This document shows positions 12,039 to 42,193 of a stretch of 53,320 nt of DNA, in pieces. A program made the translations under genes and the position numbers. The notes under the pieces are model-generated. The model worked only from the letters and a program-made list of their open reading frames with translations, searched no databases and had not been told where the DNA came from. Source of the DNA: a virus (lineage: Duplodnaviria; Caudoviricetes); the IMG/VR virus record IMGVR_UViG_3300021963_000165, positions 1 through 53,320 of that record. The stretch is one strand, 5' to 3'. Every line of letters begins with the position of its first letter. Positions within the stretch are counted from its first letter, which is position 1.

Positions 12039-12237
12039 CTACCTGACACCCCGTGAGCTTGCTGAGCGATGGCGTAATGTCGTTGCGCTCAGCACGCTCG
12101 ACAACTGGAGGTCGCAGCAACGCGGCCCCCGGTGGTTCAAGGCTGGTGGTCGGGTGCTCTACCCGATTAACGAAGTCGTTCAATTCGAGCAGCGCAACAT
12201 GCGCGGCTTTCCCAACAACATCAACGGAGACCGATGA
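12022..12237 (+). CDS. Excisionase-like HTH protein
   Basis: YLTPRELAERW...TLDNWR...GPRWFKAGGRVLY. Confidence 0.8.
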   Translation: MTQSGDYLTPRELAERWRNVVALSTLDNWRSQQRGPRWFKAGGRVLYPINEVVQFEQRNMRGFPNNINGDR

Positions 12238-22757: not shown

Positions 22758-23933
22758 TCACTGTGAGACCAGCACCGCCCAGCCTGAGCCGGGGCCTTCA
22801 ACCTCCCAGCGCCGAAGCCAGTTCTTGCGGCTGTAGCCGATTGCGGCGCCCTTGCTGTTGACGTAGCCGCCGTTGACCATGTCGCACTCGCCGAACGGGT
22901 CGTTGTGGACGATCTGCAGCGGGTTATGGCCCACCACGACGCTCCAGTGGCCGCCACCGCTCGGTGCCGAGGCTGGACCCTTGTGCAGCCAGCCGACCGC
23001 CACCGGCCGCCCGGCGTTGATCTCGCGCTCGAGTATCGCCACGTTGCAGGACTGAATGAACTGCGCCTTCAGGCCGAGCGATTGCAGGGTCTTCACCTGC
23101 GCCCCGGCTTCGGTGGTGTCGCCGTACTGGGCGCGGATCTTGTTGTATTCGTCGTCGGTCTTCACCTTGCCGTAGAAGGCCGCGATCATGGCGCAGGACG
23201 ACGAGAAACACTCGCGGTAGCCCTCACCGGACTGGTTGTCGCGCTGGCTGAAGTAGGGCACGGTGAGCCGCACGGCATCAGCCGGCATCTCCTCCATGTC
23301 CTCCATCCAGAGCTTGCCTTCAGCGGTGCGCCGGCGCTTCAGGCCGGCCTCCACCGAGCTGCCCGGATTCCGGTACAGCAGCATCGCCGCCGGCACATCC
23401 TTCCACCGGCGCTCGTTCAGCGCAGCGGTGATGGTCATGAACCCGGAAGAGCCGTAGAAGCCCGAGCCGAGGTTGTAGGCGAACGAGATCAGCGCTGACT
23501 TCTGACAGTCGCCCATCTCCTTCCAGTGCGGAATGGTGCTGCCCAGCTTGGTCGCAATCCGATCGACCTCCTGACGCAGGAGCATGTCGGCCTCGATCGC
23601 GTTGATCTTGTCGCCCTTCTGCACCTTGCGGCCGTCGTTGTAGCGGGTGGTGCCGTAGCCGATCGTGGCCACGTCCCACCCGTGCAACGGATCGGGGTAA
23701 GCCTCGAGATGGCAACCCTCGAACTCCTTGATCAGCTTCAGCGCCGGCGCCAGGTCAGCCTGCTTGCCGTCTTGGCTCCAGGTGCTGAACCACGGCCGAT
23801 CGCGACGCATCGCAGCGGCGTAGCCGTTTTCGCGCAGATCGTTCTGCAACTCGACGATGGCCGCGGCCTGGTGGGGCAGGGCCTTGTAGTAGCGGAACAG
23901 CTGCTCGAGGCTAATCGGGGAGGCGTTGCTCAC
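22758..23933 (-). CDS. Endolysin: GH24 lysozyme plus C39-like peptidase
   Basis: IKEFEGCHLEAYPD...TIGYGTT; VPYFSQRD...ECFSSSCAM...GGGHW...HNDPFG. Confidence 0.9.
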   Translation of the reverse strand: MSNASPISLEQLFRYYKALPHQAAAIVELQNDLRENGYAAAMRRDRPWFSTWSQDGKQADLAPALKLIKEFEGCHLEAYPDPLHGWDVATIGYGTTRYNDGRKVQKGDKINAIEADMLLRQEVDRIATKLGSTIPHWKEMGDCQKSALISFAYNLGSGFYGSSGFMTITAALNERRWKDVPAAMLLYRNPGSSVEAGLKRRRTAEGKLWMEDMEEMPADAVRLTVPYFSQRDNQSGEGYRECFSSSCAMIAAFYGKVKTDDEYNKIRAQYGDTTEAGAQVKTLQSLGLKAQFIQSCNVAILEREINAGRPVAVGWLHKGPASAPSGGGHWSVVVGHNPLQIVHNDPFGECDMVNGGYVNSKGAAIGYSRKNWLRRWEVEGPGSGWAVLVSQ

Positions 23934-24106
23934 TCGCGACTCCAGGGCGACTTGATTTCCATGGCACCACCAAGCAGCCGGCTGTCACCGGTCTGCAGCT
24001 CTTCGTCGATCGGGTGATGCTCGATCACTGGGGCTGGCACGCTTTGTGGCTGTGTGGCGTGCCAGTCCTCGATAGCGCGATCAAGCCGCGGCCCGATCGT
24101 CAGCGT
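23930..24106 (-). CDS. Start-less ORF (58 aa), predicted -1 frameshift extension of the holin-like gene
   Basis: Open -1 frame after CCCAAAA; its stop overlaps the endolysin GTG. Confidence 0.6.
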   Translation of the reverse strand, partial: TLTIGPRLDRAIEDWHATQPQSVPAPVIEHHPIDEELQTGDSRLLGGAMEIKSPWSRE

Positions 24107-24237
24107 TTTGGGAAGGCAAGCCGCAGGAACTGCAGGATCAGCTGGATGATGCTGTTGGCACGCAGCGGGCTGAGCGCAATGGCCTCAGATGCAGCTGCGA
24201 CGATGATCGCGATAATGGCGGCGGTGGTGGGGTCCAT
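24100..24237 (-). CDS. Holin-like small membrane protein (45 aa)
   Basis: MDPTTAAIIAIIVAAASEAIALSPLRANSIIQLILQFLRLAFPKR, upstream of the endolysin. Confidence 0.7.
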   Translation of the reverse strand: MDPTTAAIIAIIVAAASEAIALSPLRANSIIQLILQFLRLAFPKR

Positions 24238-24276
24238 GCCGAGGATCACTAGGGGACTCCTTAAAGGCTAGCCCGA

Positions 24277-24537
24277 TCAGCGCGGCTGGGCATTGACCGG
24301 CTGCAGGTCAAGACGAAGGTGCCCCGTAATGAATGACGCAAACGGCGGCAGGATCAGGCTGGCGAGCACTGCGGCCAACACCACCTGCGCCATGCGTGTT
24401 TCCAGCTTTCCGATGCGCTGGAAGATGTCTTTCTTCTCGTCGTCATCTCGCGTCTGGCTCAGCAGGATGGCGTCCATCTTGCCTTGGAGCACGCCGAGCT
24501 CCCTATAGATTTCGGCGTGAGACACCTCGCGCTCCAT
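24277..24537 (-). CDS. Coiled-coil plus TM protein (lysis-associated)
   Basis: VSHAEIYRELGVLQGKMD, hydrophobic C-terminus; AGGAG RBS. Confidence 0.7.
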   Translation of the reverse strand: MEREVSHAEIYRELGVLQGKMDAILLSQTRDDDEKKDIFQRIGKLETRMAQVVLAAVLASLILPPFASFITGHLRLDLQPVNAQPR

Positions 24538-36709: not shown

Positions 36710-37154
36710 TGGTCACCGGAATCGCGCCAATCAGCTTCTGCGTCAGCCGGCGCACCGGTGCATCGCCGCCGACAGCATCCAGCACGGTGTTCAGCACCAG
36801 CTTGAGCGCCGTCTCGTCCCAATCGCCCTGCGCCACCTGTCCTGAATACTGGTGCAGCAAAGTGACGGTGCTTGAGTCGGAAGGATCGAGCAGCATTACT
36901 TTGATATTCGCCAGCCAACGATCCTGGATGGCCTCAACGCCCCACGGCCTGCTCAGCTTGTTGTTGGGGAAGACCAGGCTGGCTTCGGTGTTGTCGCCGG
37001 TGCGGTTCACCGTGACGCCAGAAAAGCCAAACGGCATGAAGCCGTAGCTGTTGCTGTCATAGGTGACGGTCTTGCCTATGAAGAAGTTCTGGAACCGATA
37101 GGTGGTGCCCTTGGCAGCGGTCAGGGTCAGGTAGTTGCCGACTGCGTAATCCAT
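36690..37154 (-). CDS. Minor tail protein
   Basis: Directly after the tape measure gene. Confidence 0.65.
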   Translation of the reverse strand: MDYAVGNYLTLTAAKGTTYRFQNFFIGKTVTYDSNSYGFMPFGFSGVTVNRTGDNTEASLVFPNNKLSRPWGVEAIQDRWLANIKVMLLDPSDSSTVTLLHQYSGQVAQGDWDETALKLVLNTVLDAVGGDAPVRRLTQKLIGAIPVTSAVNLQ

Positions 37155-40100
37155 CAGACGCCAATCCTCTTGCGGGTGCTCACGCTTGTCTGCAGACGCC
37201 GCAGAGTGCGCTGCTCACCTTGAGCTGCACCGCGTGCTGCGGCCTCCCTCATGCCCATCTGAAACTGCTCTGCGGTCACATACTCGACGTTGTTGATCCG
37301 CTCGACGGTATAGCGCACGTCGATTGCGCCACCCGTGGCCGCACCGCCGGCCGACATGGCGCCGCCGCTTTCGTTGTCGCCAGCCACGGTGCCCATTGCG
37401 CTGATCGGCCGGTAACGATTCAGGGCATCGCTGCGCTGCTGGACCTTCACCGGGATGGTGCGGCCATCGGGTAGGGGCACAAATGCTTCGGGGCCGCGCT
37501 CGCCGTAGAGCGCCACCTGGGGCTCGCGAGCGATGCCGCCAGCCGCGTAGCGCTTCATAGGCACCACGTTGTTCGACATGACGCCGCCAGTGGCGAACTT
37601 CTTCAGTGGCGCCGAGCTGTTGGGGCCGGTAGCGCCACCGGTGGCTGCCATGCCGATTTTCAGGCCAGGGAAGGCAGCGAACAGCGCCTTGAACAGCGCG
37701 TACTTGATGAAGATCGCACCGAGCTCCTTGAGGATGCTGGCGGCCAATTCCTTGAACGCCGCCTTGCCGCCGGAGGCCATCTCCACAAGGGCATTGGAGA
37801 TGCCGTCGATTGCGCCCACGACGACGTTGCCCAACTGGCCGCCAAGGTCAGTGGCCGACTTGTAGGCATCCTGCAGGGTCTGCTTAAAGCGCTCGCCGAA
37901 GTCCTTGGCCTTGTCCGCAGCGGCGGCCTGAGCTCTGGCGTTGTCCTCCATTGCCTTGGACAGCTGTGGGTACAGCTTCACCAGCGCCTCGATGGCCTCT
38001 CGCAGCCTGTTCGCCTGATCGCTGTTGCCTTCCCCTTTCTCCTCAAGGATCTTGAGCGCTTCGCCAGCGGCGTTGACCTGAGCAGTGAGCTGACGAGCGG
38101 CTTCGGCCTTCTTGAGCTGATACTCAATAAGCTCGGGCCGCATGCCTGCCGCCTCGAGCTTGTTGCGGTACTCGAGCATGAAGTTTTGATCTTCCTGCGC
38201 CTTGATCTGCTCGCGAATCTGCTCAGTGAAGTCGGAAACGAAGCCGGTGCCGATCGCGGACTTCAGCTTTTCGATCTGCTGCGTCGTCATCTGCGCGATC
38301 TGCTCGGCAGTCTGCAGATCAACGCCCTCGGCGCCAGCAGTGCCAGCTGCACGAACAGCACGGCGTTCTTGAGCGGCCGCACCCGTCGCGCCGTTACCCT
38401 TCATCGCGCTGTTGGCCATCAGGTGCAGGGCACGCATGGTGCCCTCGGGCGTCATCACCTCGATCGCGTAGCCGCCGGCACCGGTGTTCCCAAGGTCGCG
38501 GCCGAAGGTGGCGCCGCCCTTGAGGCTGATCTGCGAGCCGGCCGGAGTGCCAAAGTCGATGCCCTTGTGGAAGTTGCGGCCAAACAGGCTGCGGGGGCCG
38601 TACTCGCTGGTGACGCCAAACGAGCTGGGCGCCTTGCCGTTGACTAGGAAATACTTGTCGGCGTCAGCTCTGGTGATCGGCCGCCCATCGCCCCAGCGCA
38701 GGTCGAGGTGAGCGCCAGTGCTTTGGCCGGTGTTGCCCGTGCGAGCCACGATACCGGTGGACGCGCCCCCGGCAGTGACCGTCGCCATCGACTGAGCCGA
38801 CCGCAGCTGCTGCTGGGCGTTCTGCACTCCGATGCTGGCGTCCAGCGACCGGGTGCGCAGGTCGCCGATCTGCTTCAGGAAGCCGGCGATCATGCCAGCG
38901 GCAGACTTGCCGGCGCCGGTGAAGCCCTTCACCCAGTTGTCGAGCTCGATGTTTTGCAGCTCGCGCTGATACTCGTGCCGGCGACGGATCAGCTCCATCG
39001 CATTGCGGTGGACCGCGTCCTGCAGCGCGATCTCGGCGCGGGCGGTGGATTCGTTGAGCTGCTGCTGGAGAGCGGCTTCGCGCTCGGCGTCGTCGGCGGC
39101 CTTCTTGGCGCTCTTCCCGTCGTCGTCTTTCGGGTTGGCAAAGTTAGTGAGCCCCTTGCCGGTCTTGTCCTGCGTGTCCTTCAGGCGCTCCAGCGAGGCG
39201 CGAGTTTCGTCAATCCGGCCCTGGATGCGCTTCTGGTCGGCCTCAAACGCATCAATCTGCTTGGCGCTCAGGCTGTCAGCCGGCACCTTGCGCAGAACTT
39301 CCTGCACCTCTTGCAGATAGCGCAGGTTCTGCTCAAGCCCGGCCTTGTTGCTCTGCGGCGTGATCGCCTTCTCCAACGCCAGCGCACGCTTGCGGAACTC
39401 GGTGATCTCAGCAGCACTGAAGCCCTGCCGTTTCAGCGGACCTATGCCTTGCAGCCCGAGCGGCTGGTTTGCGTCCTTCAATCGCTGCGCTAGGTCCGCA
39501 TCGCGGCCGGCGGCGTTCATCTCGTTGAGCGCGTCCTTCACCAGGCCCAGCGACTTCAGCGTCCGGGTGGCGAGCTCAGCGACCTTGGCGATAATTGTGG
39601 CGATCGAGCTGGTGATCGGCATCACCGCGCTACCAAAAGCCGCCTGCAGGTCGGTCAGCGCGACCTTCATACGAGCGGTCGAGTCCTCCTGCGACTTGGC
39701 CATCTTGAGCGCCGTGCCGGCGTTCTGCTCGCTCAATGCCATGGAGAACTTCATGACATCGTTGAGGCCGACCGTGCCTTCTTTCAACGCTTCGCTGAGC
39801 TGGGCACCGGTGCGGCCGGTTGCAGCTGCAAAGCGGGTGAAAGCACCCGGCAGACGCTCACCGAGCTGGCCAGAGAGTTCTTCCGCAGAGACCTTGCCCT
39901 TGGAGAACACCTGACTCATGGCGGTCAGAGCGCCCGCCACGTCCTCTGATGTGCCGCCGGTAGCCTTGATCGCCTCAGTGACGCCGCGGAACACGACCTC
40001 GGCATCACGCACATTGCCGCCCGCACCCTGTACCGAGGCCAGCAGCTTGGTGAAGCCCTGGGTTGCCTCGAGTGTCGGGACATTGAGTTCGGTGGTGACG

Positions 40101-41551
40101 CTGCGGATGACACGCTGCGCCTCGGCGTAGTCCTGCTGAGTGCTAGTGAGTTCCTTGAGCGCGATATTGAGCCGGCCGATCGTGGCGGCGTACTCAGCCG
40201 ATGCAGTGACCTGCTGGCGTACCAGGCTGATCTGGGCACCAATAGCCGCACCAGCAAACGCGCCGCCAACGGTTCCAATGCCGGGAATGGCTGAGCCGAC
40301 CACCGCGCCGATCGTGCCGCCGACAGCGCCTTCAACGCCGCCAAAGATGCCGCCCGATGCAATTGCGCCGGCGGCCTGCAGCCGCTGACCCAGCTTGTTG
40401 CCACCGCCCTGGGTCTTCTCCAGCTGGCGGTCGATCTTGGCCAGCTCGCGGCTGGCCTCCTTGAATTCAGCGCTGCTGCTGTTGACCGCGTTGCGCAGCG
40501 ATTCCCACGCCGAGCGCTGCGACCGCAGGCTGTTGATGCTGCCGTCCGAGGCGGCCGTCGCACCGCGGATGTCCTGGGCGACCTGCTTGTAGCTGTTGCC
40601 CATCAGCTCGTTTTGCTGGGCAATGCGGCTCAGACCAACCGCTTGGATTGAGCGATACAGCTCGCTCGTCTCCATCATCGGCAGCTCGATGGCTGCCTGG
40701 CCTTGCTTGCGCTGGTTGCGAGCGATCGACTTCTCGATCGCGATCCGGTCGCCAATCGTGCTGGCGCTTTGCGAGAACGCCAGGAAACCGCTGCTGGTGT
40801 TGCGGCTGGCCTCGAGGCGCCGACGAGCTGCCTCGACGGCCGGGTTGGCGAATTCCTGATTGAGCTGGCGCTGGACGTTTGCGATTTCACGCGATACCCG
40901 GATCCAGTCCGTGCCACCGCGACTCAGGTTGACAAATTCCTCGTTGAGCTCGCTCAGCCGCTGCTGCAGCCCGGCCGTGGTGTTCGGCAGCTCCGGCAGC
41001 GCTGCTCCACCCTTGCCGCCCTCCCTGAACGTTTCAAAGCCAGCGATGACGTTCTGCCGACCCAGCGCCGTGTTGAACGGCAGCTGGCGGCGCTGGATTT
41101 CGGTGAGGGCGTCGGTGTACTGCCGCGAGTAGACGCTGAGATCCTGCAGACCGCGGCGCAGCGCAGCGATCTGTTTGTCAAATGTGCCCGGCTTGGAGCC
41201 GACAATCTGCGCCTTGAGTTGCGCGTCGGTGAACTGCTTGACGCCCGTCGACGCTTCCTTGTAGGCGCCGCCAAGGTCTTTGATGTCCTTGCCGAGCTTC
41301 TTATAGACAGTGCCGCTGATGGACGCCTGCCCCTGCAGCGCCTTGAGCGCCTCGATCTGGCCGCGCAGTGACTGCTCGGTCTGCTCGCCGGCCTTGCCGA
41401 AGGCCAGGATTTCCTTCCGCGCCTTGCTCAGCTGCTGGTCGCTCGGACCGATCGCCTGCTGAAGACCCTTAAACGCGCCCTTGAGTTTGTCGAAGCCTTC
41501 TAGGCCTTCGATCTGGGCGAGGATCTTAAGCCGTGCGACCTGTTCAGCCAT
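37154..41551 (-). CDS. Tape measure protein with M23 peptidase module
   Basis: AMSQVFSKGKVSAEELSGQLGERLPG; helical Ala-rich; GERGPEAFVPL; HKGID. Confidence 0.92.
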   Translation of the reverse strand: MAEQVARLKILAQIEGLEGFDKLKGAFKGLQQAIGPSDQQLSKARKEILAFGKAGEQTEQSLRGQIEALKALQGQASISGTVYKKLGKDIKDLGGAYKEASTGVKQFTDAQLKAQIVGSKPGTFDKQIAALRRGLQDLSVYSRQYTDALTEIQRRQLPFNTALGRQNVIAGFETFREGGKGGAALPELPNTTAGLQQRLSELNEEFVNLSRGGTDWIRVSREIANVQRQLNQEFANPAVEAARRRLEASRNTSSGFLAFSQSASTIGDRIAIEKSIARNQRKQGQAAIELPMMETSELYRSIQAVGLSRIAQQNELMGNSYKQVAQDIRGATAASDGSINSLRSQRSAWESLRNAVNSSSAEFKEASRELAKIDRQLEKTQGGGNKLGQRLQAAGAIASGGIFGGVEGAVGGTIGAVVGSAIPGIGTVGGAFAGAAIGAQISLVRQQVTASAEYAATIGRLNIALKELTSTQQDYAEAQRVIRSVTTELNVPTLEATQGFTKLLASVQGAGGNVRDAEVVFRGVTEAIKATGGTSEDVAGALTAMSQVFSKGKVSAEELSGQLGERLPGAFTRFAAATGRTGAQLSEALKEGTVGLNDVMKFSMALSEQNAGTALKMAKSQEDSTARMKVALTDLQAAFGSAVMPITSSIATIIAKVAELATRTLKSLGLVKDALNEMNAAGRDADLAQRLKDANQPLGLQGIGPLKRQGFSAAEITEFRKRALALEKAITPQSNKAGLEQNLRYLQEVQEVLRKVPADSLSAKQIDAFEADQKRIQGRIDETRASLERLKDTQDKTGKGLTNFANPKDDDGKSAKKAADDAEREAALQQQLNESTARAEIALQDAVHRNAMELIRRRHEYQRELQNIELDNWVKGFTGAGKSAAGMIAGFLKQIGDLRTRSLDASIGVQNAQQQLRSAQSMATVTAGGASTGIVARTGNTGQSTGAHLDLRWGDGRPITRADADKYFLVNGKAPSSFGVTSEYGPRSLFGRNFHKGIDFGTPAGSQISLKGGATFGRDLGNTGAGGYAIEVMTPEGTMRALHLMANSAMKGNGATGAAAQERRAVRAAGTAGAEGVDLQTAEQIAQMTTQQIEKLKSAIGTGFVSDFTEQIREQIKAQEDQNFMLEYRNKLEAAGMRPELIEYQLKKAEAARQLTAQVNAAGEALKILEEKGEGNSDQANRLREAIEALVKLYPQLSKAMEDNARAQAAAADKAKDFGERFKQTLQDAYKSATDLGGQLGNVVVGAIDGISNALVEMASGGKAAFKELAASILKELGAIFIKYALFKALFAAFPGLKIGMAATGGATGPNSSAPLKKFATGGVMSNNVVPMKRYAAGGIAREPQVALYGERGPEAFVPLPDGRTIPVKVQQRSDALNRYRPISAMGTVAGDNESGGAMSAGGAATGGAIDVRYTVERINNVEYVTAEQFQMGMREAAARGAAQGEQRTLRRLQTSVSTRKRIGV

Positions 41552-41876
41552 TGTCGTTCAGCACCTGAAGAGCGGCCGCTTCCATGACCTGGATGCCCTC
41601 CAGCATGGCCTTGTGGTCCTCAACTGAGTATAGGTCGCACATCCAGCGCAGGGCTTCGTACTTCAGTCCGGTGAAGCCGCCCATTGTGGTGTTCCACTGA
41701 GTCTGGAGACGCAGAAACATCATCACGATGTCCCAGTTCTCGTCCCAAACCTCGAAATCTGTTTCAGCCGGCTCAGGATTAGGCAGGACGACGCCCATTA
41801 AGCGAGCGTCGTCCTCCGTCTCATCCTTCACCGCACCCGCTGCGGCCCAGTATTGAGCCGCGTCCTCTAGTTTTTT
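41544..41876 (-). CDS. Tail assembly chaperone, frameshifted part (gpT / DUF1799-like)
   Basis: FEVWDENW...FLRLQTQW...GLKY; reached by -1 shift at AAAAAAC. Confidence 0.8.
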   Translation of the reverse strand, partial: KKLEDAAQYWAAAGAVKDETEDDARLMGVVLPNPEPAETDFEVWDENWDIVMMFLRLQTQWNTTMGGFTGLKYEALRWMCDLYSVEDHKAMLEGIQVMEAAALQVLNDNG

Positions 41877-42193
41877 GCTTTGCCGCCTTCCAGGCTTGCC
41901 AGGTAGGCGGCGATGATCCCACGGGTGAAATAGGGATCATCCAGCAACTCCTTGAGGTTCGCCTTGTTGAAGGGAACATCCTTGCCGGCTTCGTCCGCAA
42001 TGCCTTCCCAACCAGTGAGGACGGTCTCGACTAACTCGAGGTCGCCCTTGTCGATCAGCTTCTGAAATTCAGCGCGACCGATCCGCTTGAAGATTGCGTC
42101 GAAGGTCTCGCTTTCAAACCGGCCGCCGTCGACAGGGGATTCAACGGTGACCGGCCACTTGAAAGTCGAAGACTTCTTGCGGACGAATGCCAT
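41867..42193 (-). CDS. Tail assembly chaperone (gpG-like)
   Basis: Between tube and TMP genes; ends GCA AAA AAC TAG. Confidence 0.85.
   Translation of the reverse strand: MAFVRKKSSTFKWPVTVESPVDGGRFESETFDAIFKRIGRAEFQKLIDKGDLELVETVLTGWEGIADEAGKDVPFNKANLKELLDDPYFTRGIIAAYLASLEGGKAKN

Follow-up and report, generated by a model that had tools for sequence, protein, structure and literature searches.

A Candidate Programmed -1 Frameshift Site in a Lysis-Cassette Membrane-Protein Gene, Conserved among Relatives of the Synechococcus Siphoviruses S-CBS3 and S-CBS1

The stretch of DNA analysed here (the window) is the complete IMG/VR record IMGVR_UViG_3300021963_000165, of 53,320 base pairs (bp), from a virus to which, among named phages, S-CBS3 and S-CBS1 (siphoviruses of Synechococcus) are closest. 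In its lysis cassette, located between tail-fibre-like genes and the gene of a 391-amino-acid (aa) endolysin, a small gene encoding a holin-like membrane protein ends in a slippery heptamer, C_CCA_AAA, and an open reading frame (ORF) continues from this point in the -1 frame up to the start of the endolysin gene. This frameshift signal is present in the window and is conserved across a clade of related loci, and on comparative grounds it very likely corresponds to a conserved programmed -1 frameshift in a new gene context; that slippage actually occurs, and with what efficiency, we infer from the sequences. From the window alone, the case for a frameshift is only modest, and it is because of the comparative evidence from related loci that it stands far above chance.

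The slip site in the window and in related loci

The initial annotation of the window had described an in-phase C_CCA_AAA heptamer at 24112-24106, followed by a 6-nucleotide (nt) spacer and a hairpin with a 9-bp stem at 24099-24078 (here and below, all coordinates of the lysis cassette refer to the minus strand), and every one of these coordinates was found to be correct. The membrane-protein ORF reads TTC CCA AAA CGC TGA at its 3' end, and translation of the -1 frame revealed that it is open from 5' of the heptamer through to the TGA at 23932-23930. Two further claims about this frame, namely its length of 58 codons with an early part devoid of start codons, and the overlap of its TGA with the GTG of the endolysin gene, also held. 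The first ATG, GTG, or TTG past the upstream stop is a GTG at 24040, and the terminal TGA overlaps the endolysin GTG (23933-23931) as GTGA; among the relatives described below, 59 of 60 junctions likewise have an extension whose stop overlaps the start of the endolysin gene (by 4-32 nt), a pattern compatible with translational coupling. The predicted isoforms would have 45 and 102 aa if translation starts at the ATG at 24237, or 49 and 106 aa if it starts at the GTG at 24249. Counting both strands, V_VVA_AAR heptamers occur 30 times in the window. The one at 24112-24106 is unique among them in following an ORF of 45 codons or more, with a stop no further than one codon away and a -1 frame that stays open for 58 codons or longer. 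Two others, of the form V_VVA_AAG, at positions 12213 and 19303 of the minus strand, have a -1 frame open for 60-71 codons, and their zero frame reaches a stop after 4-8 codons.

Related loci were fetched by two routes, 80 of them through the endolysin and 80 through an alignment of the extension (80 out of 380 relatives of the extension in IMG/VR). A match to the extension was present in 93 loci, 88 of which were evaluable; four were cut by the end of the contig, and in another one (L103) the upstream gene was missed by the motif search, though the heptamer is present. Relative to the membrane-protein gene, the extension occupies the -1 frame in all 88 evaluable loci, and in each it stays open from the slip position on. 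The 64 distinct junctions form 15 single-linkage clusters at 80% identity of the extension and are not independent samples. The heptamer is in phase in 62 of these 64 junctions, and in 61 of them its position is identical, a single codon separating the X_XXY_YYZ heptamer from the stop; in the remaining one (L139), it sits three codons before the stop. The sequences found in these 61 junctions are A_AAA_AAG (36), C_CCA_AAG (20), C_CCA_AAA (4), and G_GGA_AAG (1), and all four types fall in the V_VVA_AAR class, which is reported as the most shift-prone in Escherichia coli (PMC4066793). The homologues thus support the claim of the initial annotation that a programmed -1 frameshift would yield two isoforms, a short one and one extended at its C-terminus. 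Besides the heptamer itself, the only universal feature of the junctions is the distance of exactly one codon between heptamer and zero-frame stop; this distance may reflect a role in pausing, or it may be set by codons of the Leu type, with which the -1 frame spans the stop in most tails.

The same arrangement was found in the genomes of S-CBS3 and S-CBS1. Their gene order is that of the window (coiled-coil membrane protein, small membrane protein, small "hypothetical protein", and endolysin), both small membrane-protein genes end in an in-phase A_AAA_AAG followed by one codon and the stop, and the genes annotated downstream, gp22 in S-CBS3 (L002:2435-2602) and gp23 in S-CBS1 (L004:1675-1887), lie in the -1 frame, open from the slip site. 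These genomes bear on the explanation that a sequencing or assembly indel splits what is one continuous gene, in favour of which it can be said that homopolymer runs are error-prone and that one database protein (P0064) looks like such an error-containing sequence. However, the two-frame structure is present in 88 of 88 loci, including these two isolate phage genomes, and the site of the window is spanned, without inserted or deleted letters, by contigs from three further sequencing runs that belong to two separate studies. In addition, the 15 longer database homologues include no genuine fusion in which membrane protein and extension share one frame, their N-termini being off-frame read-through of the upstream gene. 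The indel explanation is effectively refuted by the 88 loci and the indel-free contigs.

The four heptamer types span three different C-terminal peptide contexts of the membrane protein (FPK[RK], xKKx, and PGKR). The codon 5' of AAA AAG is always of the form NNA, being GGA, AGA, CGA, GCA, CCA, GTA, or CAA (seven codons for six amino acids), and TTC CCA AAR is used in 25 of 26 distinct Phe-Pro-Lys tails, even though Pro is encoded by CCA in only 15% of cases in the window and in 28% in the related loci. This pattern at synonymous sites argues for selection acting on the nucleotides rather than on the protein. Another possible source of the fusion is transcriptional slippage, in which the RNA polymerase would slip on the run of A's. 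Six or seven consecutive A's, which would favour such a process, are present in 36 of the 64 junctions, but 24 of them, including the window, have only three or four A's after CCC, and bacterial transcriptional slippage usually requires longer runs. Moreover, this process needs no X_XXY_YYZ phase, yet the phase is kept in nearly all the junctions (62 of 64), and we consider it a very improbable source of the fusion.

The -1-frame extension and the candidate hairpin

In 35 of the 64 junctions, the first quarter of the extension has no ATG, GTG, or TTG, and in 19 of them the same is true of the first half; one junction (L159) has an extension without any of these codons. The position of the first start codon in the extension varies between junctions. 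Homologues with their own starts and no slip site, which the initial annotation had named as grounds for abandoning the idea, are not what the clade contains, given that the heptamer is in phase in 62 of the 64 junctions and that 35 of them are start-less in the first quarter. In the family alignment, protein conservation of the extension begins at the Lys of the slip site and continues through the start-less part; the ATG annotated for S-CBS3 gp22 falls inside a block conserved family-wide, and the start annotated for S-CBS1 gp23 is a TTG. Pairwise differences in the start-less part amount to 0.107, 0.065, and 0.320 at codon positions 1, 2, and 3, respectively, within the 10-sequence subgroup to which the window belongs, and to 0.223, 0.171, and 0.422 and 0.183, 0.119, and 0.417 in two further subgroups. 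As judged from these substitution patterns, the start-less region is coding and under purifying selection.

AlphaFold2, run with 57 alignment rows, confidently predicted a helix, strand, helix, strand arrangement for the 59-residue extension, with a mean predicted local distance difference test (pLDDT) score of 86.8. No PHROGs family was found for the extension, and a fold search of the model against PDB gave no matches at E <= 0.001. Against BFVD, the model matched only its own relatives and an uncharacterised protein of Synechococcus phage S-PM2, and neither fold search pointed to a function. The latter (Q5GQH8, 132 aa) was matched with a Foldseek E value of 9.9e-3, a query-normalised template modelling score (TM-score) of 0.52, and 24% identity; S-PM2 being a T4-like cyanomyovirus, this model-based likeness hints at a domain spread across cyanophage families.

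Downstream of the heptamer, the hairpin at 24099-24078 is the minimum-free-energy fold of its region. Within the subgroup of the window, which is small (10 sequences) and made up of closely related members, the hairpin is paired in 86.7% of cells and two of its pairs show compensatory double changes, a covariation reached by none of 500 shuffles; in addition, RNAalifold independently recovers a 7-bp core of the same hairpin. The initial annotation had taken the stem as part of a canonical -1 frameshift signal and had proposed an alignment of homologues to look for a conserved heptamer and covariation of the stem. The heptamer proved to be conserved, whereas the stem, a candidate stimulator, found support within this subgroup and not family-wide. 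By eye, no Shine-Dalgarno-like sequence was seen 10-14 nt 5' of the window heptamer.

The same data speak to whether the signal could be real in the relatives while the extension of the window itself is an untranslated or decaying remnant. Close relatives seem to have lost the extension altogether (L007, with its membrane-protein gene abutting the endolysin), and the window heptamer ends in A and not in the more shift-prone G. However, the extension of the window is intact and 88-95% identical to that of four relatives, the differences within the 10-sequence subgroup are concentrated at third codon positions, and the hairpin shows compensatory changes, all of which makes a remnant highly unlikely.

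Contrary observations and relatives with other architectures

Several of the observations gathered in this section weigh against a programmed frameshift. The first -1-frame start lies upstream of the zero-frame stop or overlaps it in nine of the 64 junctions, with overlap in five of them, and two junctions (L136 and L161) have no heptamer; in this minority, with early starts in nine and no heptamer in two, the extension may be initiated independently. The fold of the hairpin region of the window is no more stable than that of dinucleotide shuffles (z of -0.62, with 51 of 200 shuffles as good), the 55 nt downstream are not unusually stable family-wide (mean z of -0.5 over the 64 junctions), and the candidate hairpin of a second subgroup has no compensatory pairs among 18. 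No RNA sequencing runs listing the stretch were found. Regarding the membrane protein, no Pfam family was matched at E <= 0.01, nor any named holin family.

Further points of this kind come from cassettes that lack the extension. Among the loci fetched, three architectures were distinguished. In architecture A, the membrane-protein gene is followed by the extension ORF and the endolysin; in architecture B, the membrane-protein gene directly abuts the endolysin; and in architecture C, it is followed by a homologue of the 86-aa protein of the window, with its own GTG overlapping the stop and without a heptamer. Architecture C was found in L010-L036 and similar loci (e.g., L010:2238-2495), where the 86-aa homologue lies downstream, versus upstream in the window, and the gene order of the lysis cassette is shuffled between relatives. 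Among the extension-less relatives, 14 of 20 distinct Phe-Pro-Lys tails keep TTC CCA AAR, mostly three codons before the stop, and the conservation of the heptamer may be in part a matter of history or of some other constraint. The heptamers in these tails would reflect either recent losses of the extension or another preference for these codons; L007, whose endolysin is 77% identical to that of the window, resembles a loss. In relatives without an extension, the -1 frame enters the endolysin gene for 4-347 nt and gives an Arg-rich reading without likeness to the extension. We do not propose a -1 product for these relatives, as the frame reads as off-frame endolysin sequence. In loci L063-L084 (e.g., L063:2354-2497), an in-phase C_CCA_AAG is kept beside the endolysin, and the -1 frame runs 95-347 nt into it.

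The extension also has relatives outside lysis cassettes. A profile search of 1.84 billion representatives yielded only 91 clusters, including standalone relatives in contigs with a guanine-plus-cytosine content of 46%; the metagenome scan for distant relatives was made with five sequences. Of these distant standalone relatives, 62 of 78 begin with an ATG of their own (residue 1), and in a set of 80 no homologue of the endolysin or of the membrane protein lies within 1.5 kilobases. Because such standalone relatives exist outside lysis cassettes, the extension domain is not intrinsically a lysis module, which weakens the claim that it is a dedicated lysis regulator. The standalone relatives (L245-L324) lie in aquatic metagenome contigs, and in L248 the gene (L248:1501-1812) overlaps the end of a 284-aa ORF. 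In addition, two proteins, each from a single database cluster, carry the extension joined to other sequences: P0007 (154 aa, from one contig) is a coiled-coil membrane protein similar to S-CBS3 gp20 fused to the extension, and P0057 (218 aa) has the extension domain in frame with a lysozyme domain. Neither locus was recovered; for P0057, the search for related loci gave lysozyme-domain matches only. A search of viral contigs with protein P0053 as the query gave 63 pattern matches, of which none could be confirmed.

Several of these observations fit an ordinary separate gene, in which the extension would be translated through internal initiation or through termination-reinitiation close to the stop, maybe at a non-canonical codon, and the heptamer would be a by-product of a conserved, Lys-rich tail of the membrane protein. 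The early or stop-overlapping starts of nine junctions (five overlapping) are of this kind, and L136, one of the two junctions without a heptamer, has a GTG that overlaps the TGA. Public annotations assign own starts to S-CBS3 gp22 and S-CBS1 gp23, the distant relatives stand alone with an ATG, and the heptamer is retained in 14 of 20 extension-less tails. However, a separate gene is difficult to reconcile with a protein-conserved region whose first quarter is start-less in 35 of 64 junctions, and which in one junction has no start at all. The codon that overlaps the stop is CTG, CTA, or TTA, varying with the stop, so that there is no single codon for reinitiation. Furthermore, the A at the third position before AAA AAG is kept across seven codons, which protein conservation cannot account for, and 61 of 64 junctions have the heptamer in one fixed phase and place. 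A separate gene is therefore unlikely, and programmed -1 frameshifting is the explanation that we prefer.

Membrane protein, proposed mechanism, and known systems

The coordinates of the cassette are collected in Table 1. The endolysin encoded there contains the lysozyme domain at residues 69-205 and the C39-like peptidase at residues 223-346, preceded by a conserved N-terminal region of about 68 residues without a family match.

Table 1. Features of the lysis cassette in the window, in coordinates of the whole stretch.
Feature	Position	Strand	Details
Small membrane-protein gene ("holin-like")	24100..24249	minus	start GTG 24249 (49 aa) or ATG 24237 (45 aa); zero-frame stop TGA 24102-24100
Shine-Dalgarno-like AAGGAG	24257..24262	minus	7 nt 5' of GTG 24249; sequence reading
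Slippery heptamer C_CCA_AAA	24106..24112	minus	in phase with the membrane-protein gene; single codon CGC, then stop
Hairpin, 9-bp stem and 4-nt loop, candidate stimulator	24078..24099	minus	begins 6 nt past the heptamer; minimum-free-energy structure
-1-frame extension ORF	23930..24109	minus	slip-site Lys, then 58 codons and TGA 23932-23930
GGAG, ribosome-binding site of the endolysin gene within the extension ORF	23940..23943	minus	6 nt 5' of the endolysin GTG; sequence reading
Endolysin, 391 aa	22758..23933	minus	Pfam Phage_lysozyme 4e-23, Peptidase_C39_2 2e-07; PHROG endolysin families 3e-87
86-aa protein	24277..24537	minus	coiled-coil-like N-terminal part, hydrophobic C-terminal segment; second small membrane protein of the cassette

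In its 45-aa form, the membrane protein was modelled by AlphaFold2 with a 52-row alignment (pLDDT 78.4) as a 20-residue helix (residues 3-22), a short loop, and a 13-residue helix (residues 29-41). Its C-terminal tail ends in Lys-Arg, and by eye the positive-inside rule places the C-terminus probably in the cytoplasm. The gene lies 166 nt upstream of the endolysin gene, and 64 of 85 loci have a homologue of the membrane protein in this place, upstream of the endolysin. By eye, the N-terminus of the endolysin does not look hydrophobic, and no signal peptide is apparent; because of its position beside an endolysin of this kind, the membrane protein is assigned to lysis, in which we infer that it acts. 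The initial annotation had called its gene holin-like. The protein resembles holins in its small size, in its predicted membrane helices, in the charged residues at its C-terminus, and in adjoining an endolysin without an apparent secretion signal, but beyond the lack of a Pfam match mentioned above, its sole PHROG match is family 22542 (3.1e-12), of unknown function; it is at most a putative holin. Inspection by eye of the zero-frame translations revealed no conserved dual-start motif at the N-terminus.

According to the mechanism that we propose, most ribosomes would stop at the TGA at 24102-24100 and produce the two-helix membrane protein of 45 or 49 aa, whereas a fraction of them would slip one base back at the heptamer C_CCA_AAA, where tRNA-Pro would pair anew with CCC and tRNA-Lys with AAA, and would translate 58 further codons. 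The shifted product, of 102 or 106 aa, would carry the same membrane anchor followed by a small, folded, acidic C-terminal domain, which would have no start of its own and would end on the start codon of the endolysin gene. The ratio between both isoforms would be set by the efficiency of slippage, and shifted ribosomes that terminate on the endolysin start could add to the translation of the endolysin. The initial annotation had gone further and had coupled endolysin translation to the frequency of frameshifting; the conserved overlap of stop and start, kept in 59 of 60 junctions, is in its favour, but the endolysin gene has a GGAG of its own 6 nt 5' of its GTG.

As for the function of the long isoform, we suggest only tentatively that it modulates the timing of lysis or the short isoform, at a ratio fixed by the efficiency of slippage. 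A more elaborate possibility, which we regard as rather doubtful, is that this is the first recoding-controlled lysis cassette of a double-stranded DNA phage, in which an acidic cytoplasmic domain on a fixed fraction of the holin-like protein would tune the timing of the lesion, in an antiholin- or timer-like manner, while the shifted ribosomes would feed the synthesis of endolysin. Since the same domain is found free-standing in other aquatic phages, it would be, in this scheme, a modular regulator captured by the clade via recoding. If true, a single slip frequency would determine the isoform ratio and, in part, how much endolysin is made.

Lysis timing is textbook material for dual starts and separate antiholins, and -1 frameshifting in tailed phages is likewise well known for tail chaperones and for a few capsid and replication genes. 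In lambda, the S105/S107 pair constitutes the holin/antiholin dual-start motif, its isoforms differing by two N-terminal residues through alternative initiation. As in S105/S107, one membrane-protein gene of the lysis cassette would here give two isoforms in a ratio set by translation, but the predicted isoforms differ by a C-terminal domain of 58 residues that would be added by recoding. A precedent for lysis-gene translation coupled to a rare upstream frameshift and termination comes from the RNA phage MS2, whose lysis gene expression, following work by Kastelein in 1982 and Berkhout in 1987, is said to depend on frameshifting and termination in the overlapping coat gene. This resembles the idea of shifted ribosomes feeding the endolysin; in MS2, however, the frameshifts are reportedly spontaneous and no functional trans-frame protein is made, whereas here the predicted trans-frame protein is conserved and the endolysin gene has its own ribosome-binding site.

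The closest known system in logic and anatomy is the G/GT -1 frameshift of the tail assembly chaperone, present in lambda and in the majority of tailed phages (Levin 1993; Xu 2004; both cited in PMC5009743). In both systems, a short ORF has the heptamer right at its 3' end, and a start-less -1 extension reaches the next gene. G/GT gives two products with a common N-terminal part at a fixed ratio, as would be the case here, and needs no strong stimulator. Unlike G/GT, the short product here is a membrane protein beside an endolysin and not a chaperone upstream of the tape measure, and the extension family is unrelated; lying between tail-fibre-like genes and the endolysin, the site does not qualify as a G/GT pair. 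The -1 sites of E. coli dnaX (tau/gamma) and of IS3/IS911 belong to the same heptamer class (A_AAA_AAG, C_CCA_AAG, G_GGA_AAG), and in the insertion sequences the zero-frame stop is also near the motif; these sites have demonstrated stimulators, either an upstream Shine-Dalgarno sequence or a downstream hairpin or pseudoknot (PMC4066793). In contrast, at the site studied here, only the subgroup-specific hairpin, a candidate stimulator, has any support. In E. coli, the efficiencies of shifting given by that study are about 0.3% if no stimulator is present and reach 54% if there is a pseudoknot.

At the level of titles and abstracts, searches combining holin and frameshift terms, or S-CBS1 and S-CBS3 with frameshift, retrieved no description of such a site in a lysis cassette, and the word "holin" is absent from the 300,000 characters covered of the 2016 recoding review (PMC5009743). 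A conserved frameshift within a lysis cassette would unite recoding and lysis timing, and would constitute a new route to two isoforms of a membrane protein at a hard-wired ratio. It would also matter for annotation, as gene callers assign arbitrary starts or junk N-termini to the extension ORF, which S-CBS1 and S-CBS3 list as a separate hypothetical gene. The site is present in two cultured phage-host pairs (S-CBS1 with Synechococcus CB0201 and S-CBS3 with CB0202), and the phages infect picocyanobacteria (Synechococcus hosts), so that the control of their lysis may bear on aquatic carbon turnover.

Finally, the window offers an internal precedent for the proposed frameshift in a classic tail-chaperone -1 site elsewhere, on the minus strand, where an A_AAA_AAC heptamer stands directly before a TAG (41876-41867). 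There, a 108-aa ORF (41867-42193, minus strand) ends in GCA AAA AAC TAG, and the -1 frame continues through a 95-aa ORF to 41544, ending beside the ATG at 41551 of a tape-measure-like ORF of 1465 aa (37154-41551).

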